Below, in pieces: positions 538-26,571 of a stretch of 32,000 bases of DNA. The stretch's first letter is position 1. Each line of letters starts with the position of its first letter. The DNA is from Flavobacteriaceae bacterium (lineage in GTDB: Bacteria > Bacteroidota > Bacteroidia > Flavobacteriales > Flavobacteriaceae): the NCBI GenBank assembly GCA_965224465.1, contig OZ245049.1:870001-902000 (forward strand), read 5' to 3'. Below the pieces are notes generated by a model. That model saw only the letters and a list, made by a program, of their open reading frames with translations, searched no databases and was not told the origin of the DNA. The position numbers were made by a program, and so were the translations under genes.

Positions 538-1530
538 ATGAACTTTGCCATTGTGATCTTAAACTGGAACGGAAAACAACTATTAGAACAATTTTTACCA
601 AGCATTATAGCCTATAGTGACCCTTCCTATTCAAGTATTTATGTGGCAGACAATGCCTCTACGGATGATTCTATTTTATTTATTAAAGAAACCTATCCGA
701 GTATTAAAATTATTGAGAACAATAGTAATGGTGGTTATGCCAAAGGTTATAATGATGCTCTAAAACATGTAGATGAAGAAATTTACGCCTTGGTAAATTC
801 TGATATCGAAGTCACTAAAAACTGGCTAGCTCCTATTAGAGAATTGTATATGACTCAAAATAAAACCGTAATTATACAGCCTAAAATACTAGATTTCAAA
901 CAAAAAGACCTCTTTGAATACGCAGGAGCAGCAGGTGGGTTTTTAGACAAGTATGGCTATCCATTTTGTAGAGGGCGTATTTTTAACAGTATAGAAAAAG
1001 ATCAAGGACAATACAACGACATTCTCCCCATTTTTTGGGCTTCTGGAGCTTGTTTTTTTATAAAAAAGGATGCTTTTAATGAGTTAAATGGTTTTGATGA
1101 AGCTTATTTTGCCCATCAAGAAGAGATCGATTTATGTTGGCGTGCTCAAAACTTAGGGATGGCTGTTGTATACAATGGACACTCCACAGTTTACCATGTT
1201 GGAGGAGCAACACTCAATGAGCTTAACCCTCAAAAAACATACTTAAATTTCCGTAATAGCTTATGTAATTTAGTGAAAAACACGCCTAAAAAAGGAATGT
1301 TCTTATTACTATTTACTAGATTAATGCTCGATGGAATTGCAGGAGTTAAATTTATGCTAGAATTAAAGCCTCGTCATACAATTGCCATTATCAAAGCACA
1401 TTTTGGTTTTTATTCCATGTTTTCTTCTATGCTAAAAAAACGAAATTCAACTTTAAAAAATGTCCCTTATTATAAAACCAAAAGTATTGTTTGGGATTAT
1501 TTCATAAAAGGAAAAAAAGAATTTAAATAG
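538..1530 (+). CDS. Glycosyltransferase family 2 protein
   Basis: 330-aa ORF. N-terminal IVILNWNG...DNASTDDS...GYAKGYN and later EEIDLCWR motifs are typical of GT2 rhamnosyltransferase-like enzymes. Confidence 0.8.
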   Translation: MNFAIVILNWNGKQLLEQFLPSIIAYSDPSYSSIYVADNASTDDSILFIKETYPSIKIIENNSNGGYAKGYNDALKHVDEEIYALVNSDIEVTKNWLAPIRELYMTQNKTVIIQPKILDFKQKDLFEYAGAAGGFLDKYGYPFCRGRIFNSIEKDQGQYNDILPIFWASGACFFIKKDAFNELNGFDEAYFAHQEEIDLCWRAQNLGMAVVYNGHSTVYHVGGATLNELNPQKTYLNFRNSLCNLVKNTPKKGMFLLLFTRLMLDGIAGVKFMLELKPRHTIAIIKAHFGFYSMFSSMLKKRNSTLKNVPYYKTKSIVWDYFIKGKKEFK

Positions 1531-1584
1531 GATTACACCAATAGTTATTAGCACATTATAGACGATTCAAAACAGCAAACAATA

Positions 1585-1718
1585 TGGAAATAGATCCACG
1601 TCAGCTTTCTTTTTAAAACCATCCTTAGTAGAACAAATTATAAAGCATTGTTCCCTTAAATTTTTTAACAAAGGAACTGAAATTTTAAGAGCAGAACAAT
1701 ATATAATATCAATTACAT
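1585..1718 (+). pseudogene. Remnant of a Crp/Fnr-type (cNMP-binding) regulator N-terminus
   Basis: ATG at 1585 stops after 10 codons. A shifted frame reads SLVEQIIKHCSLKFFNKGTEILRAEQYI, resembling the start of flavobacterial Crp/Fnr regulators (…GTEILREGQYVK…). Similarity ends where repeat copy A begins (~1719). Confidence 0.35.
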
Positions 1719-1860
1719 TCCAAACTGACCGATATAAAAATTTATTTTACGTTCTAGCGTTGTTAAAAAATAGAACGATAGCTAATATCCATCCATTTTC
1801 CGGCTAGCTAAAAAAATAATTCCATTTTTAAACCTTCACTTGGAAATGTATTTAATATAA
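1719..1860 (+). repeat. Copy A of a ~140-nt hairpin-rich intergenic repeat family
   Basis: Aligns by eye along its length with 18971..19122. Shared blocks are CCAAAnTGACCnATATAAA, TTTTACGTTCTAGCGTTGTTAAAAAAnAGAACGATAGCTAA and AATTCCATT...GGAAATGTATTT. Contains paired arms CGTTCT/AGAACG, TAGCTA/TAGCTA and TTCCA/TGGAA. Confidence 0.7.
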
Positions 1861-1936: not shown

Positions 1937-2119
1937 TTAAGCTCTTTCCAAAAGGCCCCATCTACTTTTGCTAGCTTGAGTTTTTTTAAATAAACGTGCT
2001 GTGTTTACATACGTGGTTCTGTATTCCTGAGTACAAAACACTTTTGTCCATACACCTAATTTACTTAAATACATTTTTAAGTACTCATAACCGTTGTGTC
2101 GTAAGCGTACCGTATCCAT
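1937..2119 (-). CDS. Hypothetical small protein (60 aa), doubtful
   Basis: ATG-initiated ORF in otherwise non-coding DNA. No recognisable motif; could be a gene fragment or a chance ORF. Confidence 0.2.
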   Translation of the reverse strand: MDTVRLRHNGYEYLKMYLSKLGVWTKVFCTQEYRTTYVNTARLFKKTQASKSRWGLLERA

Positions 2120-2288
2120 AGCAATTATTATTTATATTCTTAGGATAAAACAGACCCCTAGTAAAATCCTTGCTTAATTCATACTTTTAAAAAGCAAAAA
2201 AAACAGGAATCCCCCTTTAGGATAAGCATGTAAACAAAATTAACCAGAATTAAAAACACAAGAATTCACGCGCATAACATTATTTTTA

Positions 2289-2451: not shown

Positions 2452-3138
2452 ATGGTAAAAGCAATATTAATAATAGATGGAAAAGAAGTAAACGTACGTT
2501 GGTTTACTATCAAATTTAATCAAGGAGCAAATCCTAACGGCAGACCTTCTCAAATTCCAGTATTTGTAGGTTTTAAACTAATTATAGAAACTAGAAAAGA
2601 CCTAAACCTAGCTGAATGGTCCTTTTCCTCCAGACAAGCAAAGCAGATCATCTTACATATAAAACCAGTTATTATTGGAGGAAAAACAAGAAAAATATTT
2701 TTCTATGACTGCCATCTTGTAAATTGGAAAACCAATTTTTCTTCTACAGGTTCAGATCCAATGACGGAAACTTTAGAAATCACCTGTGCTGGTGTTGAAG
2801 ATTCTAACTCGTTTGGTGTGTATTCTGCATCTTGGAGAGTTACGTATCCAGCAATAGAGGTTGAAGCTACTACTCTAGAAGAAAACAATAAAGAAATCAC
2901 ACGTTATTATTTAACAAACCCAGAAGGCGAACGCATCGTAGATTATAATGAGGATGATATAATTATAGTAAACACGGAAACCCAAAATCGCATAGGAGAT
3001 GTTTTAACTATAAACTTAGACGATCCTGAGTATGATTTTGAATACAATGGAATTTTACTCATTAATGATTCTCTTGAAATTGTTATTCAAAATAATTTAG
3101 AACTAACAGAATTAAAAGTAGTTGAACAAAATAAATAA
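2452..3138 (+). CDS. Hcp/TssD-like tube-protein domain (aa 1-130) with a ~98-aa C-terminal extension
   Basis: Start placed at ATG 2452; the track ORF begins at an upstream TTG. MVKAILIIDGKEVNV..F.I.FNQ....NGRPS......GF.L.IE...D..LAEW......K.I.L.......GK...I.F.D..LV.W...F...G..PM.E.LEI follows the conserved-residue spacing of Bacteroidota TssD. Residues 131-228 have no counterpart in canonical ~130-aa TssD. Confidence 0.6.
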   Translation: MVKAILIIDGKEVNVRWFTIKFNQGANPNGRPSQIPVFVGFKLIIETRKDLNLAEWSFSSRQAKQIILHIKPVIIGGKTRKIFFYDCHLVNWKTNFSSTGSDPMTETLEITCAGVEDSNSFGVYSASWRVTYPAIEVEATTLEENNKEITRYYLTNPEGERIVDYNEDDIIIVNTETQNRIGDVLTINLDDPEYDFEYNGILLINDSLEIVIQNNLELTELKVVEQNK

Positions 3139-3877
3139 AGAGTAATGACTAAATTAAAAAAAACTGGTTTTAGAATAACATTTGAAGACGGTGAAACTAG
3201 GACTATATACTTACAACCTATTGCGAACAAAAAATGTTCTATTAGGTTTGAGGCAGATAAATCAGACATCATAAATGGTATATTTGGTTTCGATGAGATC
3301 CCTTATAACGACAAATCCCCTGAAAAAAGAACAAAAAAACTATCTGAAATTTGTTTCTCTGACATCCATAAATTAAAAGATGAATACATACCTATTACCG
3401 TAGAAGGTAAAGAATACTTAGCCCCGTGGATCAGTATCAGAAAAGACCAAACAATCACTTTGGATGTGATTCTGAAAATCAAAAAAGAAGAGGAATATCA
3501 AAGTATTGTTTTTGAAGAACATCCTGATTTTACGATAATACCTATAGATAAGAAAGGAACTAAAGTTGATTTAAAAAAAGCTAAAAAAATAAAAATAACC
3601 TGTAATAACACCAACCAAAAAACCGTTCAAATAAAAATAATAGCAGACGAAAAAGAGGCAGGAGCAATAAATTTTTGGTATCCAAAACCAAAAACTATTG
3701 ACCTAAAATGGTATTTCATTGAGCTAACAGGTAACGATAAAGACAATGATGATTTAAAACATAAAATAGACCGATCTAAATTAGAAGCATTACTAAAAAA
3801 AGGTTTAAACCCTGCCTTAATTGATGTTAACATTCTAAATAAAAATGCCGAAATAATTGACATGACCGAATATGCTA

Positions 3878-5003
3878 GCTGAATTCAAGTCACAAACGCA
3901 ACTTTTAGTTAAATAATAATTGTTCCATTACAAATATAGGGTTTTGATATTTATGTCTCTTCCTAGGTCTGTTATTTAATTTTGTTTCTACCTCTTTGAT
4001 TCTTTGATCTGTTAGGTTTGTAAAGTCACTTCCTTTGGCAAAATATTGTCTAATCAAACCATTTAAATTTTCGTTAGATCCTCTTTCCCAAGAGTGATAT
4101 GGATGCGCAAAAAAGTAATCAATACATAAATTTTCTGCAACCTGCTCATGGCCTGCAAATTCTTTTCCATTATCAGCTGTTATAGTATGTAGATAAGGCT
4201 TCCAGTCTTCTAATATTTCATTGATAGCTTTAGTGACAACAACTGCTTCTTTAGAGCTTACTTTTTTCATTTTAAGCATTCCAGAAGCTCTATCATTTAC
4301 GGTAAGTATGGCTTGATTATGGTTTTTACCTATGATTAAATCGACCTCTAAATCTCCAAATCGATTTCTTTGTTCAACAACTTCAGGGCGTTGTTCTATA
4401 CTAATACGATTCTTTATAACCCCTCTAGAATCCTTTGATGAGCCACGTTTTCTATATCTCCTTCCCTGTCTGCGAAGGTGTGTATGTAAATCACCATCAT
4501 TCCTCTTGTCTTCCCTAATATGCTGATATATACGCTCAATAGACACCGTTTCTTTACCTTGTTTTTTTAGGACACCAACTACTTGCTCAGGACTATAATC
4601 GTCTCGCAATAACAACTCTATTGCTTGTTGAATATCTTCTGTAAAGCGTTTTCTTTTAGGCTTTTCTTTATGACGTTTAGCATACTTTTTTTGGGCTAAT
4701 TCATGCTTGTAAACTCCATTTCTTTTGTCTGAATTACGCTTAATCTCTTTGCTAATAACAGACTTGTCTTTTCCTATAGCAGCTGCTATCTCAACCTGTT
4801 TATAACCTTGTTTTAACATGCAACAAATTGTGTATCTTTGCGCTTGGGTGATGTGTTTCATACAACTTCTTTTTTCGAGATTTGAGACCGTAAGATACAT
4901 ATCCATCAAGACAAGAAAGGTAGGTTTTCCTACTTTTCTGTTTTGAAAATATAACCATCATAGAATCAAATCGAAAAGTTGCGTTTATTAGTTGAATTTA
5001 AGA
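3878..5003 (-). mobile_element. IS30-family insertion sequence, copy 1 (1126 bp)
   Basis: About 99% identical (nine substitutions counted by eye) to 25446..26571. Imperfect ~27-bp terminal inverted repeats: 3880..3906 TGAATTCAAGTCACAAACGCAACTTTT versus the reverse complement of 4974..5000, TTAAATTCAACTAATAAACGCAACTTTT. Flanked by a 2-bp direct repeat TA (3876-3877 and 5004-5005). Confidence 0.9.
3905..4861 (-). CDS. IS30-family DDE transposase
   Basis: N-terminal HTH (QRYTICCMLKQGYKQVEIAAAIGKDKSVISKEIKRN). Catalytic core reads FGDLEVDLIIGK...ITADNGKEFAGH...FAHPYHSWERGSNENLNGLIRQYF...LNNRPRK, the classic IS30 signature. Start set at MKHITQAQ (ATG 4861); the track ORF extends to 4909. Confidence 0.9.
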   Translation of the reverse strand: MKHITQAQRYTICCMLKQGYKQVEIAAAIGKDKSVISKEIKRNSDKRNGVYKHELAQKKYAKRHKEKPKRKRFTEDIQQAIELLLRDDYSPEQVVGVLKKQGKETVSIERIYQHIREDKRNDGDLHTHLRRQGRRYRKRGSSKDSRGVIKNRISIEQRPEVVEQRNRFGDLEVDLIIGKNHNQAILTVNDRASGMLKMKKVSSKEAVVVTKAINEILEDWKPYLHTITADNGKEFAGHEQVAENLCIDYFFAHPYHSWERGSNENLNGLIRQYFAKGSDFTNLTDQRIKEVETKLNNRPRKRHKYQNPIFVMEQLLFN

Positions 5004-5478
5004 TATTAAATATTTTAAAAAAAGAAATATCATCAAAAAACAAGGAAGGTATACTTATATTGAAAGTGATAAAAAAGAATTATTTTCTGGAGCTGTACAA
5101 CAATTTTCAAAACCAGATCATAACATTGTAAACCTCTACATTACAAACCGTACATGTATAAATACAGATGAACTAAATAATGAAAATAAAACTTTTGATG
5201 CAGTTGCAGGTTTTTCTCCTGTCAATACAGGTGTTGCTTTTGGAATTTTAGAACCGAATGATCAAAAACTTTTACCAACCGCAGTTATGCACGAAATAAT
5301 GCATGCTTTAGGCTTAAAACACACATTTACGGAAGGTGAAGAGGGTGATTTAGGAAAAAAACATGTATTTAAACTAAAAAGCAGTACTAATTATATGGAC
5401 TATAAAAAAAGAAAGGAGTTTACTTGGAAATGGCAATGGGAGAAATTGCACAATTATTCACACTTAAAATAACCGATT

Positions 5479-6171
5479 ATGAAATTCTTATATTTTACTA
5501 TTAGTAGCATCTTATTTATTTCTTGTAGCTCTCTACCAAAGGAATATCTAACTACCAATAACAGTTGTTATTATAATGATCCTATTTTTAAAATCACAAA
5601 AGATGAAATGGTTTTTGACGTTAAAAAATATGGTAAAAAACTTGAAGAAGGTGATTTAGTTTTAGTTGATAATCCGAATTTTAAAAACTTATATTATCAA
5701 TGGGCAAAAGATAAAGACATAATGAACATACAAAGTAATAAAAACCTTCGTATTGACAAAAACATTGGTTTTTATCCAAATGGAAATATACAATATAGTA
5801 ATTTTGAATATGTTAATGGAGATACCAAAATAGGTAAAGAAACAGATTACAATCAACAAGGCAATATAACCAAAGTAATAGATTATGAAAAAGGCTATCA
5901 AATATGTTGGACAGAAGCTATTGAAATTGTAAAACAAATAGCTAAAAAAGATATCAAAAAATACAACGTCACTAGTTTTAATCTTCTGCGAAATAATATG
6001 AATGAATTTCCTGACCTAAAACCAGAATGGGAAATCACTTTGAACGGAAATGAAGAATATGAAGAAAAAAAATATTCTAAAAAAGGTAAAAAGATTTATA
6101 TTATTGATGGTATCACAGGGGGTTTAACAAATATAAAAGCGATTAGAATGATCTATCCTGGTATGGAGTAA
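5479..6171 (+). CDS. Secreted lipoprotein-like protein, array copy 1 (candidate immunity protein; variant A)
   Basis: 230 aa. Signal peptide with Cys (SSILFISC-SS). Starts 6 nt after the metallopeptidase stop. The central aa 52-125 are variable and MORN/YwqK-like (YPNGNIQYSNFEYVNGD...). The C-terminal TEAIEIVKQIAKKDIKKYNVTSF...EWEITLNG...KKIYIIDGITGGL resembles a PepSY fold pattern. Confidence 0.8.
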   Translation: MKFLYFTISSILFISCSSLPKEYLTTNNSCYYNDPIFKITKDEMVFDVKKYGKKLEEGDLVLVDNPNFKNLYYQWAKDKDIMNIQSNKNLRIDKNIGFYPNGNIQYSNFEYVNGDTKIGKETDYNQQGNITKVIDYEKGYQICWTEAIEIVKQIAKKDIKKYNVTSFNLLRNNMNEFPDLKPEWEITLNGNEEYEEKKYSKKGKKIYIIDGITGGLTNIKAIRMIYPGME

Positions 6172-6311
6172 TTACATATTTAAAAAAAAGAAATAGCATC
6201 AAAAAAACAAGGAAGGCATACTTATATTTAAAGTAATAAAAAAGAAAGGAGTTTACTTGGAAATGGCAATGGGAGAAATTGCACAATTATTCACACTTAA
6301 AATAACCGATT
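6172..6311 (+). pseudogene. Toxin-gene ghost 1 (5' ~65 nt joined to 3' ~70 nt of the toxin C-part; catalytic core absent)
   Basis: Aligns to ~5009..5078 and then directly to ~5411..5478. The junction lies in the microhomology ATAAAAAAGAA. About 333 nt, including HEIMHALGLKH, are missing. An in-frame TAA (TATATTTAA versus TATATTGAA) makes it non-coding. Confidence 0.8.
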
Positions 6312-7001
6312 ATGAAATTCTTATATTTTATTATTAGTAGTATCTTATTTATTTCTTGTAGCTCTCTACCAAAGGAATATCTAACTACCAATAACAGTTG
6401 TTATTATAATGATCCTATTTTTAAAATCACAAAAGATGAAATGGTTTTTGACGTTAAAAAGTATAAAGACACATTGGATAAAGGGCGTTTAGTTTTTACA
6501 AAACGTAATAATTTAAAAAATAATTTTCATAAATCTAAAGATGGAAGTATAACTTTTAAACAAACAAACAAGCGATTAAATATTCAAAGGACAATTGAAT
6601 ATGATAAAAAAGGCAATATATTATTATCTTACTTTAAGTATTTAAATGGTAGTTCGTATCTAAAAAAAGAAACATCCTATGACCAACAAGGCAATATAAC
6701 CAAAGTAATAGATTACGAAAAAGGCTATCAGATATGTTGGACAGAAGCTATTGAAATTGTAAAACAAATAGCTAAAAAAGACATTGAAAAATACAACGTC
6801 ACTAGTTTTAATCTTTTGCGAAACGATATGAATGAATTTCCTGACCTAAAACCAGAATGGGAAATCACTTTGAACGGAAATGAAGAATATGAAGAAAAAA
6901 AATATTCTAAAAAAGGTAAAAAGATTTATATTATTGACGGTAACACAGGGGATTTAACAAATATAAAAGCGATTAGAATGATCTATCCTGGTATGGAGTA
7001 A
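6312..7001 (+). CDS. Secreted lipoprotein-like protein, array copy 2 (variant B)
   Basis: 229 aa. The first 51 aa and last ~105 aa are near-identical to copy 1. The centre is unrelated in sequence (KDTLDKGRLVFTKRNNLKNNFHKSKDGSITFKQTNKRLNIQRTIEYDKKGNILLSYFKYLNGSSY). Confidence 0.8.
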   Translation: MKFLYFIISSILFISCSSLPKEYLTTNNSCYYNDPIFKITKDEMVFDVKKYKDTLDKGRLVFTKRNNLKNNFHKSKDGSITFKQTNKRLNIQRTIEYDKKGNILLSYFKYLNGSSYLKKETSYDQQGNITKVIDYEKGYQICWTEAIEIVKQIAKKDIEKYNVTSFNLLRNDMNEFPDLKPEWEITLNGNEEYEEKKYSKKGKKIYIIDGNTGDLTNIKAIRMIYPGME

Positions 7002-7140
7002 ATACATGTTTAAAAAAATAAATATCATCAAAAAAACAAGGAAGGCATACTTATATTTAAAGTAATAAAAAAGAAAGAAGTTTACTTGGAAATGGCAATG
7101 GGAGAAATTGCACAATTATTCACACTTAAAATAACCGATT
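7002..7140 (+). pseudogene. Toxin-gene ghost 2
   Basis: Same composition and same deletion junction as ghost 1. Confidence 0.8.
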
Positions 7141-7833
7141 ATGAAATTCTTATATTTTACTATTAGTAGCATCTTATTTATTTCTTGTAGCTCTCTACCA
7201 AAGGAATATCTAACTACCAATAGCAGTTGTTATTATAATGATCCTATTTTTAAAATCACAAAAGATGAAATGGTTTTTGATATTAAAAAATATGGTAAAA
7301 AACTTGAAGAAGGTGATTTAGTTTTAGTTGATAATCAGAATTTTAAAAATGAATATTATAAATGGAAAGGAGATAGTAAGATTACAAATAGCCAAATTAA
7401 CAAATCGTTAAATATCAAGAAACTTATAAAATATGACGAAAAAGGCAACATATTATTTTCTTACTTTAAGTATTTAAATGGTAGTACGTATCTAAAAAAT
7501 GAAACATCCTATGACCAACAAGGCAATATAACCAAAGTAATAGATTACGAAAAAGGCTATCAAATATGTTGGACAGAAGCTATTGAAATTGTAAAACAAA
7601 TAGCTAAAAAAGATATCAAAAAATACAACGTCACTAGTTTTAATCTTTTGCGAAACGATATGAATGAATTTCCTGACCTAAAACCAGAATGGGAAATCAC
7701 TTTAAACGGAAATGAAGAATATGAAGAAAAAAAATATTCTAAAAAAGGTAAAAAGATTTATATTATTGATGGTATCACAGGAAATTTAACAAATACAAAA
7801 GCGATTAGAATGATCTATCCTGGTATGGAGTAA
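7141..7833 (+). CDS. Secreted lipoprotein-like protein, array copy 3 (A/B chimera)
   Basis: 230 aa. The centre starts like copy 1 (GKKLEEGDLVLVDNQNFKN) and ends like copies 2/4 (KYDEKGNILFSYFKYLNGSTYLKNETSYDQQGN). Confidence 0.8.
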   Translation: MKFLYFTISSILFISCSSLPKEYLTTNSSCYYNDPIFKITKDEMVFDIKKYGKKLEEGDLVLVDNQNFKNEYYKWKGDSKITNSQINKSLNIKKLIKYDEKGNILFSYFKYLNGSTYLKNETSYDQQGNITKVIDYEKGYQICWTEAIEIVKQIAKKDIKKYNVTSFNLLRNDMNEFPDLKPEWEITLNGNEEYEEKKYSKKGKKIYIIDGITGNLTNTKAIRMIYPGME

Positions 7834-7972
7834 ATACATATTTAAAAAAATAAATATCATCAAAAAAACAAGGAAGGCATACTTATATTTAAAGTAATAA
7901 AAAAGAAAGAAGTTTACTTGGAAATGGCAATGGGAGAAATTGCACAATTATTCACACTTAAAATAACCGATT
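7834..7972 (+). pseudogene. Toxin-gene ghost 3
   Basis: Same composition and same deletion junction as ghosts 1 and 2. Confidence 0.8.
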
Positions 7973-8662
7973 ATGAAATTCTTATATTTTACTATTAGTA
8001 GCATCTTATTTATTTCTTGTAGCTCTCTACCAAAGGAATATCTAACTACCAATAGCAGTTGTTATTATAATGATCCTATTTTTAAAATCACAAAAGATGA
8101 AATGGTTTTTGACGTTAAAAAGTATAAAGACACATTGGATAAAGGGCGTTTAGTTTTTACAAAACGTAATAATTTAAAAAATAATTTTCATAAATCTAAA
8201 GATGGAAGTATAACTTTTAAACAAACAAACAAGCGATTAAATATTCAAAGGACAATTGAATATGATAAAAAAGGCAATATATTATTATCTTACTTTAAGT
8301 ATTTAAATGGTAGTTCGTATCTAAAAAAAGAAACAACCTATGACCAACAAGGCAATATAACCAAAGTAATAGATTACGAAAAAGGCTATCAAATATGTTG
8401 GACAGAAGCTATTGAAATTGTAAAACAAATAGCTAAAAAAGACATAAAAAAATACAACGTCACTAGTTTTAATCTTCTGCGAAATGATATGAATGAATTT
8501 CCTGACCTAAAACCAGAATGGGAAATCACTTTGAACGGAAATGAAGAATATGAAGAAAAAAAATATTCTAAAAAAGGTAAAAAGATTTATATTATTGATG
8601 GTATCACAGGAAATTTAACAAATATAAAAACCATTAGAATGATCTATCCTGGCATGGAGTAA
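7973..8662 (+). CDS. Secreted lipoprotein-like protein, array copy 4 (variant B)
   Basis: 229 aa. Differs from copy 2 at only a handful of residues (positions 7 and 28, ETS/ETT, DIE/DIK, GNTGD/GITGN, KAI/KTI). Confidence 0.8.
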   Translation: MKFLYFTISSILFISCSSLPKEYLTTNSSCYYNDPIFKITKDEMVFDVKKYKDTLDKGRLVFTKRNNLKNNFHKSKDGSITFKQTNKRLNIQRTIEYDKKGNILLSYFKYLNGSSYLKKETTYDQQGNITKVIDYEKGYQICWTEAIEIVKQIAKKDIKKYNVTSFNLLRNDMNEFPDLKPEWEITLNGNEEYEEKKYSKKGKKIYIIDGITGNLTNIKTIRMIYPGME

Positions 8663-8799
8663 ATACATGTTTACAATCACCAAAAATGTTCGTATAGTGT
8701 GTAGCCCCAAGAAGTAATACCGTGTTAAGCATGCTGCCTCAAAAGAGGAAACTATAGGATTTGCGTAGTGTAATAAAAGAGCTATCGAAAGTACCTCCA

Positions 8800-8848
8800 C
8801 TCTCTACCAAAAGAATATCTAACTATCAATAACAGTTGTTATTATAAT
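8800..8848 (+). pseudogene. 49-nt fragment of a fifth lipoprotein gene copy (codons ~17-33 only)
   Basis: CTCTCTACCAAAAGAATATCTAACTATCAATAACAGTTGTTATTATAAT matches the SLPKEYLTTNNSCYYN-coding segment of the array genes. There is no start codon or signal-peptide portion upstream. Confidence 0.7.
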
Positions 8849-8918
8849 TTTATTAATGCATGATAACGCTTTTAGAAATAATGAAACAAACTAAAAACAC
8901 TCATAAAAAAAACTTAAA

Positions 8919-9608
8919 ATGAAAAATAGATATAAAATAATAATTACGATAATTACCATAGCGATTATACTAATCTGTATTTTTGTATATGGATTGTTTA
9001 GATATGAATGGAATAACTATGCAATTGGTAAGACATATGAAATACAAGGAATATCTGATGTTATTGAAAAAGGTGATTTAATTATTTTCACAACAATAAA
9101 TCCTTATTTATTTATATCAAATGACGCAGGAAAAACATGGAGTATAAAAATGTTTAACCTCAATGAAGATGAAAATATTTTTAACGGCTTAGGTATAACA
9201 AAAGAAACAATCTCTTTTATTTCAAAAAAGAATTCAGATGGTGATACGTCTCCTCAATTTTTATATATAAGTACTGATAATGGTAGTAATTGGAGCAAAA
9301 AAAACATTGAGAAAATATTGTGTTTTAATAGAAACCTTTCGAATGAATCTGTTTCAATCAATAATGGGATTTTAGAGTGTTTTGACTTTGATAAAAATGT
9401 TACTCATTACTCTAATGATTATGGAAAAACATGGAAAGAAACCAACCAAAGAATAGGTGAATTAGAAAACATAAAATTTTCAAAAACAGCAAAAAACAAC
9501 ACTTATTTTGTTAGAAAATACAACAAGAAAACAAATGAATTCAACTCGTTATTTTCTATTAAAAAAGAGTTTGAAATTAATTTATTTGGAGATATTAGAT
9601 TTAAATGA
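8919..9608 (+). CDS. Membrane-anchored BNR/Asp-box repeat protein
   Basis: 229 aa. N-terminal TM helix (IIITIITIAIILICIFVYGLF). Three Asp-box-like motifs: SNDAGKTWS, STDNGSNWS, SNDYGKTWK. Confidence 0.6.
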   Translation: MKNRYKIIITIITIAIILICIFVYGLFRYEWNNYAIGKTYEIQGISDVIEKGDLIIFTTINPYLFISNDAGKTWSIKMFNLNEDENIFNGLGITKETISFISKKNSDGDTSPQFLYISTDNGSNWSKKNIEKILCFNRNLSNESVSINNGILECFDFDKNVTHYSNDYGKTWKETNQRIGELENIKFSKTAKNNTYFVRKYNKKTNEFNSLFSIKKEFEINLFGDIRFK

Positions 9609-9771
9609 TAAATATAAAGGCTCCATTAAAAGAACTTGATAAACCACTAAATTACATACCATCATGTTTAGGATTGTAATTGGAATAACAGACATTACAA
9701 CCTGTTTATAAGAGATTTACTAAAAAAAGCCCCTTATAATCAATTTAAAAATATAACTATTGAAAGAGCTA

Positions 9772-10392
9772 TTACAAAAAATCTGTATCCCCTTTTCCTT
9801 CTCTTAATATTTCAATTTCGTCTTGTGATAAATCAATAATAGTCGAAGCTTGATTTCCTCCATAGCCACCATCAATAATCACATCTACAATATCTCCCCA
9901 TTTTTCATTTATCAATTCTGGATCTGTCGTATACTCAATCACATCATCCTCGTCTCTAATAGAGGTAGAAACAATGGGATTCCCCAATGCTGCAACCAAG
10001 GTTCTAATAATTGCATTATCTGGTACACGAATCCCTACGGTTTTTCTATGTTTAAAGGCCTTGGGCAAACTATTACTAGCTGGCAATACAAAAGTATAAG
10101 GCCCAGGTAAGGCTTTCTTTAAAATTTTATATGTAGGTGTATCAATCTGTTTTACGTAATCAGATAAATTACTCAAATCGTGGCATATAAATGAAAAATT
10201 TGCTTTGTTTAATTTTATCCCTTTTAAACGCGCTACTTTTTCCATCGCCTTTGTATTGGTAATATCACAGCCCAATCCATATACTGTATCTGTAGGAAAA
10301 ATAATCAATCCTCCTTTTTTAAGAATTGTTACAATTTTCTCTATTTCACGTTCGTTTGGATTCTCTTCGTATATTTTAATAAATTTTGCCAT
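9772..10392 (-). CDS. tsaC: L-threonylcarbamoyladenylate synthase (YrdC/TsaC type)
   Basis: MAKFIKIY...GGLIIFPTDTVYGLGCD...LKGI...PGPYTFVLP...VGIRVPDN are YrdC-family hallmarks. Start set at ATG 10392; the track ORF extends to 10434. Confidence 0.8.
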   Translation of the reverse strand: MAKFIKIYEENPNEREIEKIVTILKKGGLIIFPTDTVYGLGCDITNTKAMEKVARLKGIKLNKANFSFICHDLSNLSDYVKQIDTPTYKILKKALPGPYTFVLPASNSLPKAFKHRKTVGIRVPDNAIIRTLVAALGNPIVSTSIRDEDDVIEYTTDPELINEKWGDIVDVIIDGGYGGNQASTIIDLSQDEIEILREGKGDTDFL

Positions 10393-10432
10393 GACTACCT
10401 GTAATTTAGTGCGAAAGTACAATATATTCAGC

Positions 10433-10462
10433 ATAAAAAAAAGCCTGCAAGAAGCAGGCTTT
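10433..10462 (-). terminator. Rho-independent terminator after the response-regulator gene
   Basis: Arms AAGCCTGC (10441-10448) and GCAGGCTT (10454-10461) with a 5-nt loop. On the minus strand the stem is followed by a U-run (plus-strand A-run 10435-10440). Confidence 0.6.
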
Positions 10463-25070: not shown

Positions 25071-25445
25071 GACGTAGTATTTTTTCGAGTGTACTTTTCC
25101 CTCTTTAGTTATCAAATTAATCTGATACAATCCATTTTTTAATCCACTTAACAATTCCTTATTACTGGTTGCATTATTAATCTTCTGAGTACTTAATTTC
25201 GTTACTTCACTCGTGCGTATATTTACTGCTGTCCAAATTCATGAACTAATACTTTTTTCGATGAATACTTATCTTCAACAACTAATGTATATTTACCCCT
25301 TTGAGCAAAAGCTTCATAACCACTAATACCTCCGTTTACATATATTTTATAATTCGCTTGTTTATCATAAAATGAAGTTGGCCAAGTACTTTTAGTTCTA
25401 TAGTCATTTAGATTTGTAAAATGATAAAGACTATTTTTAAATACA

Positions 25446-26571
25446 GCTGAATTCAAGTCACAAACGCAACTTTTAGTTAAATAATAATTGTTCCATTACA
25501 AATATAGGGTTTTCGTATTTATGTCTCTTCCTAGGTCTGTTATTTAATTTTGTTTCTACCTCTTTGATTCTTTGATCTGTTAGGTTTGTAAAGTCACTTC
25601 CTTTGGCAAAATATTGTCTAATCAAACCATTTAAATTTTCGTTAGATCCTCTTTCCCAAGAGTGATATGGATGCGCAAAAAAGTAATCAATACATAAATT
25701 TTCTGCAACCTGCTCATGGCCTGCAAATTCTTTTCCATTATCAGCTGTTATAGTATGTAGATAAGGCTTCCAGTCTTCTAATATTTCATTGATAGCTTTG
25801 GTGACAACAACTGCTTCTTTAGAGCTTACTTTTTTCATTTTAAGCATTCCAGAAGCTCTATCATTTACGGTAAGTATGGCTTGATTATGGTTTTTACCTA
25901 TGATTAAATCGACCTCTAAATCTCCAAATCGATTTCTTTGTTCAACAACTTCAGGTCGTTGTTCTATACTAATGCGATTCTTTATAACCCCTCTAGAATC
26001 CTTTGATGAGCCACGTTTTCTATATCTCCTTCCCTGTCTGCGAAGGTGTGTATGTAAATCACCATCATTCCTCTTGTCTTCCCTAATATGCTGATATATA
26101 CGCTCAATAGACACCGTTTCTTTACCTTGTTTTTTTAGGATACCAACTACTTGCTCAGGACTATAATCGTCTCGCAATAACAATTCTATTGCTTGTTGAA
26201 TATCTTCTGTAAAGCGTTTTCTTTTAGGCTTTTCTTTATGACGTTTAGCATACTTTTTTTGGGCTAATTCATGCTTGTAAACTCCATTTCTTTTGTCTGA
26301 ATTACGCTTAATCTCTTTGCTAATAACAGACTTGTCTTTTCCTATAGCAGCTGCTATCTCAACCTGTTTATAACCTTGTTTTAACATGCAGCAAATTGTG
26401 TATCTTTGTGCTTGGGTGATGTGTTTCATACAACTTCTTTTTTCGAGATTTGAGACCGTAAGATACATATCCATCAAGACAAGAAAGGTAGGTTTTCCTA
26501 CTTTTCTGTTTTGAAAATATAACCATCATAGAATCAAATCGAAAAGTTGCGTTTATTAGTTGAATTTAAGA
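25446..26571 (-). mobile_element. IS30-family insertion sequence, copy 2 (1126 bp)
   Basis: Same orientation as copy 1 and ~99% identical to it. Flanked by a 2-bp direct repeat CA (25444-25445 and 26572-26573). Confidence 0.9.
25473..26429 (-). CDS. IS30-family DDE transposase
   Basis: Differs from the copy-1 protein at two residues (V/I in VVG(V/I)LKKQG; Q/E in KY(Q/E)NPIF). Confidence 0.9.
   Translation of the reverse strand: MKHITQAQRYTICCMLKQGYKQVEIAAAIGKDKSVISKEIKRNSDKRNGVYKHELAQKKYAKRHKEKPKRKRFTEDIQQAIELLLRDDYSPEQVVGILKKQGKETVSIERIYQHIREDKRNDGDLHTHLRRQGRRYRKRGSSKDSRGVIKNRISIEQRPEVVEQRNRFGDLEVDLIIGKNHNQAILTVNDRASGMLKMKKVSSKEAVVVTKAINEILEDWKPYLHTITADNGKEFAGHEQVAENLCIDYFFAHPYHSWERGSNENLNGLIRQYFAKGSDFTNLTDQRIKEVETKLNNRPRKRHKYENPIFVMEQLLFN

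Follow-up and report, generated by a model that had tools for sequence, protein, structure and literature searches.

The closest functional precedent for the locus reported here is the Tpe/Tpi family of type VI secretion system (T6SS) peptidases and immunity proteins. The locus occupies positions 2452–8662 of a 32,000-nucleotide stretch of the genome of a Flavobacteriaceae bacterium (assembly GCA_965224465.1, contig OZ245049.1, positions 870,001–902,000 of the forward strand), hereafter the window. It consists of a gene for an Hcp/TssD protein, a zinc peptidase gene interrupted by an insertion sequence (IS), and four tandem lipoprotein genes. The Tpe/Tpi family comprises the C-terminal metallopeptidase of VgrG2b with PA0261, from the H2-T6SS of Pseudomonas aeruginosa, and Tpe1/Tpi1 of Acinetobacter baylyi (PMC6899460). 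The VgrG2b peptidase domain is thermolysin-like, with Glu as an additional zinc ligand. Immunity proteins of the PA0261 type are exposed to the periplasm, bind the peptidase directly, and depend on a disulfide between conserved cysteines; in Enterobacteriaceae, the Tpi protein is an outer-membrane lipoprotein (PMC6899460). For Hcp as a carrier, fusions of Hcp with toxins, called evolved Hcps, have been described in Bacteroidales GA2 loci in a paper that also cites earlier work on other bacteria (PMC4714493). In Bacteroides fragilis (Hcp1–Hcp2 and Bte1), minor Hcps recognise and co-segregate with cognate effectors encoded beside them (PMC13213661). We consider it likely that the genes reported here form an auxiliary effector module, now partly decayed, in the service of a Bacteroidota T6SS of subtype iii (T6SS-iii), composed of a carrier Hcp, a periplasm-acting metzincin toxin and lipoprotein immunity. 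As such, it would be a member of an uncharacterised yet widespread toxin/immunity family in marine Flavobacteriaceae.

All genes of the module lie on the plus strand and are closely spaced. The Hcp/TssD gene (2452..3138) encodes 228 amino acids (aa), and the ATG of the effector gene at 3145 stands 6 nt past its stop. An IS30-family element of 1127 bp, inserted on the minus strand (3877..5003), splits the effector gene into a 5′ part (3145..3876), which covers an N-terminal tag, an Ig-like β-sandwich and the start of the metzincin catalytic domain, and a 3′ part (5005..5472; frame from 5002/5005). The first lipoprotein gene starts at 5479, again 6 nt past the effector stop. Within the 3′ part, the segment MHEIMHALGLKHTF starts at 5287 and includes the zinc site HEIMHALGLKH (HExxHxxGxxH) at 5290–5322. 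A candidate Met-turn, M377 in NYMDY (5389–5403), is found 25 aa past H352. The residues H342, E343, H346, H352, M377 and D378 are invariant in 54 homologs, and G349 is at least 90% conserved. The effector N-terminus (MTKLKKTGFRITFEDGE...) is hydrophilic and carries neither a hydrophobic signal nor a Sec/Tat signal.

The AlphaFold2 (AF2) model of the repaired effector has a pLDDT of 90.2 and a pTM of 0.88. In Foldseek searches, its C-terminal half matched ADAM33, ADAM8, acutolysin and atrolysin with E-values of 4e-5 to 1e-3, a probability of 1.0 and TM(target) values of 0.45–0.57, at 11–16% identity, and the N-terminal part gave Ig-like matches. When the family profile was compared with PDB sequences, astacin was found with an E-value of 0.0085. 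The best Pfam peptidase match of the window effector was M10, at 14.6 bits and thus below the cut-off of 24. Weak matches among the 54 members fell to Astacin (11 members), M66 (6), M43 (5), and Reprolysin_4 and Reprolysin_5 (3 each). None of these members scored above the gathering threshold of the curated families M10, M12A, M12B, M43 and M66, and no Pfam or NCBIfam model covering the effector family was found. Because no curated Pfam peptidase family was reached, the match to metzincins is at the clan level only. The repaired effector is thus predicted to be a zinc endopeptidase of the metzincin clan MA(M) with an adamalysin-like catalytic fold. An earlier note on the same DNA had given this gene layout with its coordinates and spacings, including four paralogs with a signal peptide and Cys. 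It had also described the first gene as TssD/Hcp and the second as an IS-split gene that, after repair, encodes 399 aa with HExxHxxGxxH and no signal, and had called the product a metzincin. The ORF (open reading frame) map and the sequence agree with the layout, the Pfam TssD profile with the first gene, and the sequence and homolog alignment with the second. The metzincin call is upheld by the invariant zinc residues and M377, the ADAM/M12B fold matches (E 4e-5) and the weak astacin, reprolysin and M10 profile matches.

The locus resembles Tpe/Tpi, whose peptidase works in the periplasm of the prey, in that a metallopeptidase would be carried by a structural component of the T6SS and a presumptive immunity gene lies directly downstream. 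Unlike the Tpe/Tpi peptidases, the window peptidase has His as its third ligand, the HExxHxxGxxH motif with a candidate Met-turn, and an adamalysin-like predicted fold. Since VgrG2b is thermolysin-like with a Glu ligand, the two peptidases belong to different clans, and no VgrG2b structure was among the 50 Foldseek matches listed for the effector, those of the catalytic half being adamalysins rather than thermolysin-like enzymes. The carriers differ as well: an Hcp, fused or apparently docked, in a T6SS-iii for the present family, and VgrG in a T6SS-i for Tpe/Tpi. In addition, the window lipoproteins have no sequence relation to Tpi immunity proteins. Neither a metzincin T6SS effector nor the window lipoprotein family is described in any paper of the full-text literature searched; within that literature, the effector seems to be the first candidate T6SS toxin with a metzincin fold.

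The strongest indication of how the peptidase is delivered comes from its relatives. The repaired effector has 58 homologs in a collection of 5.8 billion proteins, most of them ~500 aa long with an N-terminal TssD domain. A Pfam scan detected TssD (PF17642) in 33 of 54 aligned members, and the N-domains of the fused homologs match solved Bacteroidota Hcp structures with E-values of 1.7e-19 to 1e-8. A scan of one genome per GTDB species then provided 60 loci, in which ORFs were annotated with our own hidden Markov models for TssD, the effector body and the lipoprotein; the census of gene context comprises 42 full-length effector genes in other, species-representative genomes. TssD resides in the same ORF as the effector in 28 of these 42 and immediately upstream in four, and neither arrangement is seen in ten. 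In four of these ten (L005, L006, L007 and L013), a VgrG gene (Phage_base_V plus Phage_GPD) ends 2–3 nt 5′ of the effector. Such VgrG-linked effectors, from Aquimarina and relatives, possess an N-terminal extension of ~85 aa (MSDIAQNDINYYAKNINTYAG...) and lack both TssD and the FRITFEDGE tag described below. The effector gene is directly trailed by one to six lipoprotein-family genes in 33 of the 42 cases, and the two stand on adjacent locus tags in Flavivirga (A8C32_05235/05240), Mariniflexile (ACFFU9_07980/07985) and a metagenome-assembled genome (L3J23_01785/01780). Core genes occur within a few kilobases of related modules: L061 has TssC (804 bits) and a protein clustering with the ClpV of L049, which itself adjoins its module. 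Most of the hosts belong to the Flavobacteriaceae (Aquimarina, Tenacibaculum, Flavivirga, Mariniflexile, Lacinutrix, Pseudotamlana, Flavobacterium and Aequorivita), with Rapidithrix, Saccharicrinis and Capnocytophaga as further hosts. Collectively, these fusions and associations are strong evidence that the peptidase family are T6SS-iii effectors, with the lipoprotein as their partner.

The carrier gene in the window matches PF17642 with an E-value of 1.4e-22 and 80.3 bits (cut-off 25.8), residues 2–116 (about 2455–2799) aligning with positions 3–117 of the 128 in the model. By this match, it is assigned as a genuine TssD/Hcp of the Bacteroidota T6SS-iii type, apparently a minor ("specialised") one. 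Its last ~100 aa (residues ~127–228, about 2830–3135), referred to here as the C-terminal domain (CTD), have no Pfam match. A phmmer search of the CTD against 1.84 billion representatives gave 112 clusters, mostly proteins of ~228–240 aa in which the CTD forms the last ~100 residues behind TssD. Across loci, CTDs are 41–59% identical to one another, and the attached TssD domains are as low as 24–30%. Since the CTD is kept while the TssD domains diverge, it resembles a conserved module that has been joined to Hcps of different kinds.

The CTD is accompanied by a feature of the effector. The junction between TssD and the effector body lies at about effector residue 29 in the fused homologs, which lack both the CTD and the first 28 effector residues. 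Where the genes are separate, as in the window and in the intact module of Pseudotamlana agarivorans (L011), the Hcp bears a CTD and the effector starts with MTKLKKTGFRITFEDGETRT. About a dozen loci besides the window have this two-gene form, an Hcp with CTD and a tagged effector, instead of a fusion. The tag, ~25–28 aa long in the window (MTKLKKTGFRITFEDGETRTIYLQPIAN, 3145..3228), has the consensus M-x-K-x-T/G-F-R-I-T-F-E-D-G-E-T-R, and in the window effector AF2 predicts a β-hairpin at residues 8–22, with strands at 8–12 and 18–22. Every well-conserved CTD in the fetched loci is followed by an ORF that starts with the tag, at a spacing from a short overlap to 6 nt. For the most divergent CTDs (L044, L045 and L049; 28–43% identity), the N-termini of the next gene are correspondingly divergent, and three further Hcp-CTD loci from an independent metagenome scan, a small sample, all fit the rule. 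In six-frame translations of all fetched DNA, the motif F-x-[IV]-[TS]-F-[ED]-D-G occurs 12 times. A CTD motif precedes 11 of these occurrences by at most 500 nt, and the remaining one belongs to a frameshifted copy in Lacinutrix. The tag is carried by at least three unrelated bodies, namely the metzincin, a 276-aa protein of Tenacibaculum discolor, and proteins of 533–545 aa (L054–L057, L061, L064 and L065). The last have an M10/M43-like HExxH (Pfam E ~2e-4) and constitute a putative second effector family; in L056 and L057, repeated 3′ relics of the gene stand behind it. From these associations we infer that the CTD docks non-covalently with the tag, an interaction that would take over the function of the fusion.

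Like the evolved Hcps, most homologs of the effector consist of an N-terminal TssD and a C-terminal toxin domain, followed by a putative immunity gene. They differ in that the toxins named in PMC4714493 are nucleases or deaminases rather than metzincins, and the window uses two genes, an Hcp with CTD and a tagged effector. A specialised Hcp paralog of low similarity encoded beside its cargo, in a cassette that moves with its Hcp, is a trait shared with the minor Hcps of B. fragilis (PMC13213661). There, however, recognition is credited to heterohexameric Hcp rings with no added domain, and term searches of that paper turned up neither an added Hcp domain nor an effector tag (PMC13213661). A wider proposal, to which we give slightly less than even credence, is that CTD and tag constitute a portable, non-covalent address for T6SS-iii cargo, by which a CTD-bearing Hcp could load any tagged toxin, and that the lipoproteins represent a novel type of metzincin inhibitor, with allele specificity encoded in the central hairpin cassette. 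In Proteobacteria, MIX, FIX and Rhs-type markers predict effectors. If the proposal is true, the tag would do the same for unknown effectors of Flavobacteriia.

Two divergently transcribed Hcp modules stand back to back in T. discolor DSM 18842 (RCCS01000006.1; L001/L016). One comprises a TssD-fused metzincin and a lipoprotein, the other an Hcp-CTD, the tagged 276-aa protein and two small ORFs, and the pair is ~3 kb from a type II CRISPR-Cas9 locus.

The four lipoproteins of the window each begin with MKFLYF(T/I)ISSILFISC. The lipobox, judged by inspection, is MKFLYFTISSILFIS-C16, with C16 and S18 invariant in 42 sequences, and Cys16, Cys30 and Cys143 are invariant in all 42 family members. 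These features fit envelope proteins with a probable disulfide, which would agree with the cysteine-dependent immunity proteins of Tpe/Tpi. Of the 46 proteins in the family, none has a Pfam domain, and many are encoded on contigs that also carry effector homologs. The lipoproteins fall outside all Pfam and NCBIfam models, and the window proteins gave no Pfam match at E ≤ 1. The AF2 model of the first lipoprotein (pLDDT 84.8) shows a seven-strand β-hairpin repeat region at residues 60–135 and a C-terminal α/β domain at residues 144–222 with the order helix–helix–β–β–helix–β–β.

This predicted architecture recalls known folds without a firm match to any. A helix on a four-stranded sheet, as predicted for the C-terminal domain, is reminiscent of PepSY and BLIP-like proteins, and the single-layer β-hairpin repeat of the middle region is reminiscent of MORN/YwqK proteins. 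The family profile found nothing at E ≤ 10 among PDB sequences. Whole-chain Foldseek searches gave nothing below E 0.016, where the best matches were single-layer sheets of OspA, with TM values of at most 0.3; weak matches included the PepSY-like DUF2874 structures (4hbr, 4ipb and 4k61) and the BLIP-like 4fr9, with E-values of 0.05–0.3 and TM values of 0.17–0.31. The commonest weak Pfam matches among 42 members were MORN_2 (8 of 42, best E 0.0058) and PepSY (5 of 42, best E 0.0032), all sub-threshold: unlike members of PepSY or MORN/YwqK, no member of the lipoprotein family passes a Pfam gathering score. That these same two families had been named in the earlier note is suggestive, none of the matches being significant. 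Its more specific claim, that the conserved C-terminal ~100 aa look like a PepSY fold, is not confirmed, as no profile match reaches threshold and the fold matches are weak. Inhibition of the peptidase by PepSY is therefore not established either.

The lipoprotein genes form an array of tandem units of ~830 bp. The genes are lip1 (5479..6171, 230 aa), lip2 (6312..7001, 229 aa), lip3 (7141..7833, 230 aa) and lip4 (7973..8662, 229 aa), separated by spacers at 6172..6311, 7002–7140 and 7834–7972; repeat homology stops ~10 bp past the lip4 stop codon. Across the units, the spacers and both ends of the genes (the initial ~150 nt and the final ~330 nt) show 91–100% DNA identity, which falls to 45–60% in a central ~200 nt, the part coding for the first hairpins (aa ~51–120). 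Three alleles of this central cassette are present: A in lip1, B in both lip2 and lip4, which are 100% identical in DNA across the region, and C in lip3. Within the array, different central alleles are 58–59% identical to one another. Each is nearer to a protein of another sample than to its array neighbours, the centre of lip2/lip4 being 77% identical to P0066, that of lip3 69% identical to P0062, itself from another sample, and that of lip1 62% identical to P0065. Conversely, the flanks are 94–100% identical within the array and 67–85% identical to those of outsiders. Because the centres match outsiders better and the flanks match array neighbours, the flanks have been homogenised and the middle is an old trans-specific polymorphism. 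Homogenised flanks around a variable middle are the pattern expected for a determinant of specificity, a role that the central cassette may therefore play.

The spacers are internally deleted relics of the 3′ half of the effector gene, in which ~65 bp like 5010–5078 are joined to the last ~70 bp. The former segment is ~88% identical to 5010–5078, and the latter is identical to 5409–5478, a stretch with the effector stop and the ribosome-binding region of the lipoprotein gene. The repeat unit has its left edge (~5010) in A/T-rich sequence, just ~7 bp away from the junction with the IS. Alternation of relic and lipoprotein gene is also found in Rapidithrix thailandica (L039, 11365–14935; four genes with relics of ~170 bp) and in L033, and Tenacibaculum sp. 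SDUM215027 (L019, 5930–10175) has six lipoprotein genes, two of them frameshifted. On the source contig outside the window, two more diverged lipoprotein paralogs, P0071 and P0086 (51–53% identity), were found, and no second effector of the metzincin family was detected on that contig in the search of 5.8 billion proteins. With four array genes, two further paralogs and no intact effector, putative immunity genes outnumber toxins six to zero.

In Rhs and CdiA orphan modules and in Bacteroidales orphan-immunity arrays, units of a 3′ toxin relic and an immunity gene are found, and the immunity genes outnumber and outlive the toxins. By its layout, the array described here is assigned to this orphan-cassette architecture of polymorphic toxin systems, with tandem relic and immunity units and alleles common to several genomes. 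It is unlike Rhs/CdiA orphan cassettes in that the variation lies inside the immunity gene, in a central cassette between homogenised flanks. Moreover, the relics cannot be swapped in as a new toxin, because they are only ~140 bp long and contain no toxin domain.

The element that interrupts the effector is an IS30-family IS, as indicated by its transposase, the N-terminal helix-turn-helix, the inverted repeats and the presence of multiple copies. The transposase gene (3905..4909, minus strand) matches the NCBIfam IS30 model (NF033563) with an E-value of 1.2e-86 as well as Pfam HTH_38, and inverted repeats of 25 nt, 88% identical, bound the element at 3882–3906 and 4974–4998. A second copy at about 25445..26571 (transposase 25473..26477, minus strand) is ~99% identical, with ~10 differences in 1127 bp, and the stretch common to both copies is exactly 3877..5003. 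This similarity suggests, but does not prove, that the insertion is recent. Many further members or variants of the transposase protein cluster come from the source contig, so the IS is expanding in this genome. Both copies have AG and A-rich bases at their junctions, and a clear target-site duplication was recognisable at neither of them.

Upstream of the element, the interrupted ORF (3145..3882) encodes 245 aa, ends in a TGA that arises at the IS junction, and aligns with residues 1–244 of intact homologs. Excision of 3877..5004 restores a frame of 399 aa, and excision of 3880..5001 one of 401 aa. Both repaired joins align end to end with intact homologs and show no other lesion, so the insertion looks like a simple event. 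As the IS lies within the catalytic domain, the effector copy in the window is a pseudogene, and the locus can therefore work at most as carrier and immunity.

Taken together, these features suggest the following mechanism. The 228-aa Hcp would be a specialised tube subunit, and its CTD would bind the N-terminal β-hairpin tag of the protein encoded downstream, a contact equivalent, in non-covalent form, to the fusion of TssD and effector. The effector would be a signal-less two-part toxin made of an Ig-like domain and an adamalysin-like metzincin zinc endopeptidase. An intact toxin would be carried by the Hcp tube into an adjacent cell and would exert its effect in the periplasm of this prey, since the partner lipoprotein presumably sits in the envelope. 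The four lipoproteins would face the periplasm and confer immunity by binding the peptidase and blocking it; the hypervariable central β-hairpin cassette would set which effector allele each of them neutralises, so that the array as a whole would cover effector variants of self and non-self origin. In this strain, an apparently recently active IS30 has split the catalytic domain, and no toxin is made; of the module, no more than the carrier Hcp and the immunity array can still function. The latter may protect the cell against kin that still fire the toxin.

Several points weigh against this interpretation. The effector is a pseudogene, and the module cannot serve as a weapon in this strain. 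No T6SS core genes (tssB/C/E/F/G/K, vgrG, clpV) are present in the 32-kb window, as annotation of the window confirmed for the same statement in the earlier note. A TssC search gave 6163 matches, and among the best 120, those listed, none came from the source contig; any TssC of this genome is less similar to the query than those 120 (down to ~82% identity), or absent. Pfam, PDB profile and Foldseek searches linked the lipoproteins to no known immunity or inhibitor family at a significant level, and nine of the 42 effector genes have no adjoining lipoprotein gene. For both families, secretion, toxicity and neutralisation are proposed from the genes, and the evidence for binding between CTD and tag is their co-occurrence. 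The contact-dependent toxin/immunity module proposed in the earlier note is nevertheless well supported, as the homologs are mostly TssD-fused or located behind VgrG, and lipoprotein genes then follow in most cases. That note had missed the relic–lipoprotein units of the array, the consequence of the pseudogene and the precedent of Tpe/Tpi (VgrG2b–PA0261).

The missing homology to immunity families and the nine effector genes without a neighbouring lipoprotein could also be accommodated by a T6SS module in which the lipoproteins are accessory factors, such as chaperones or secretion adaptors, or are delivered together with the toxin, immunity being either unneeded or the task of genes elsewhere. 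We regard this as improbable. The Sec/lipoprotein signal places the lipoproteins in the envelope, away from the cytoplasm, where the T6SS is loaded. As is standard for the immunity genes of polymorphic toxin systems, the lipoprotein genes directly follow the effector (6-nt gap), are amplified in tandem, include orphan copies associated with relics and contain a hypervariable cassette. Furthermore, all four lipoprotein genes are intact here despite the loss of the toxin, and the source contig holds the two extra paralogs with no other detectable effector of the metzincin family.

A second alternative, equally improbable in our judgement, concerns the target: the metzincin may act on eukaryotic cells or extracellular protein, in virulence or feeding, and the lipoproteins may be self-protective inhibitors comparable to TIMP or a pro-peptide. 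The closest structures are indeed ADAM and snake-venom proteinases that cut extracellular matrix, but fold similarity at 11–16% identity is uninformative on substrate. Several hosts are associates of fish or invertebrates (Tenacibaculum, Aquimarina), and the weak PepSY-like signals of the lipoproteins point in the same direction. In Listeria, a metzincin is paired with a TIMP-like lipoprotein, a pair of phage origin with a non-competitive role, which is a loose analogue (PMC8235301). Effectors directed only at eukaryotes, however, do not normally have dedicated lipoproteins encoded beside them that are amplified and diversified into alleles, and arrays of up to six copies with effector relics fit interbacterial arms races. 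That the Hcp-like gene derives from another contractile injection system or a phage-tail remnant, with the peptidase as unrelated cargo, is very improbable: the window does lack T6SS core genes and the locus lies in a low-GC islet with IS activity, but PF17642 is the model of the Bacteroidota T6SS TssD, the fused homologs match solved Bacteroidota Hcp structures, related modules adjoin TssC, ClpV and VgrG, and there are no phage genes in the 32-kb window.

Regarding the surroundings of the module, G+C content is 25–28% across positions 5000–10000 of the window and 31–37% elsewhere. The low G+C is consistent with an acquired islet, formed by the block of Hcp, effector, lipoprotein and BNR genes between GT2 (538..1530) and Sua5/YrdC (9772..10434). 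At the end of the islet, on the plus strand, is a gene (8919..9608) for a single-pass membrane-anchored BNR/Asp-box repeat protein with Pfam matches to Sortilin-Vps10 (38.4 bits) and BNR (34.1 bits). A borderline match to Tli3, a T6SS immunity family, covers 36 aa only, at 27.3 bits with a cut-off of 27, and no homolog of this gene stands beside the effector in the 60 related loci; it is possibly an orphan immunity-like gene. The remainder of the window is housekeeping in character, with GT2, Sua5, a two-component system, CoaE, YajC, NusB, ABC transporters and SucC among others. Rfam detected no RNA family in the whole window, including a GC-richer stretch past lip4. The ~920 bp 5′ of the Hcp gene (1531–2451) contain no convincing ORF. 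Candidate remnants of a tyrosine integrase (1937..2119, in an open stretch at 1940..2131, minus strand) and of a cNMP-binding protein (1562..1804, plus strand) had no Pfam match at E ≤ 1 and were dropped, and with them a link to recombinase-associated immunity islands.

For this strain, the significance of the locus is modest, the weapon being dead and only the presumptive shield genes intact. Hardly any T6SS-iii effectors have been characterised outside the Bacteroidales of the human gut, and the locus exposes a widespread candidate effector/immunity family whose hosts include fish-associated Tenacibaculum and sponge- or algae-associated Aquimarina. A single toxin body that occurs in three apparent delivery formats, fused to TssD, combined with CTD and tag, or encoded beside VgrG, amounts to a natural experiment on how cargo and tube are matched, and the tag could become a search handle for new effectors. 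Likewise, an array that joins homogenised flanks to a trans-specific cassette would be a manageable model in which to follow the evolution of immunity specificity.

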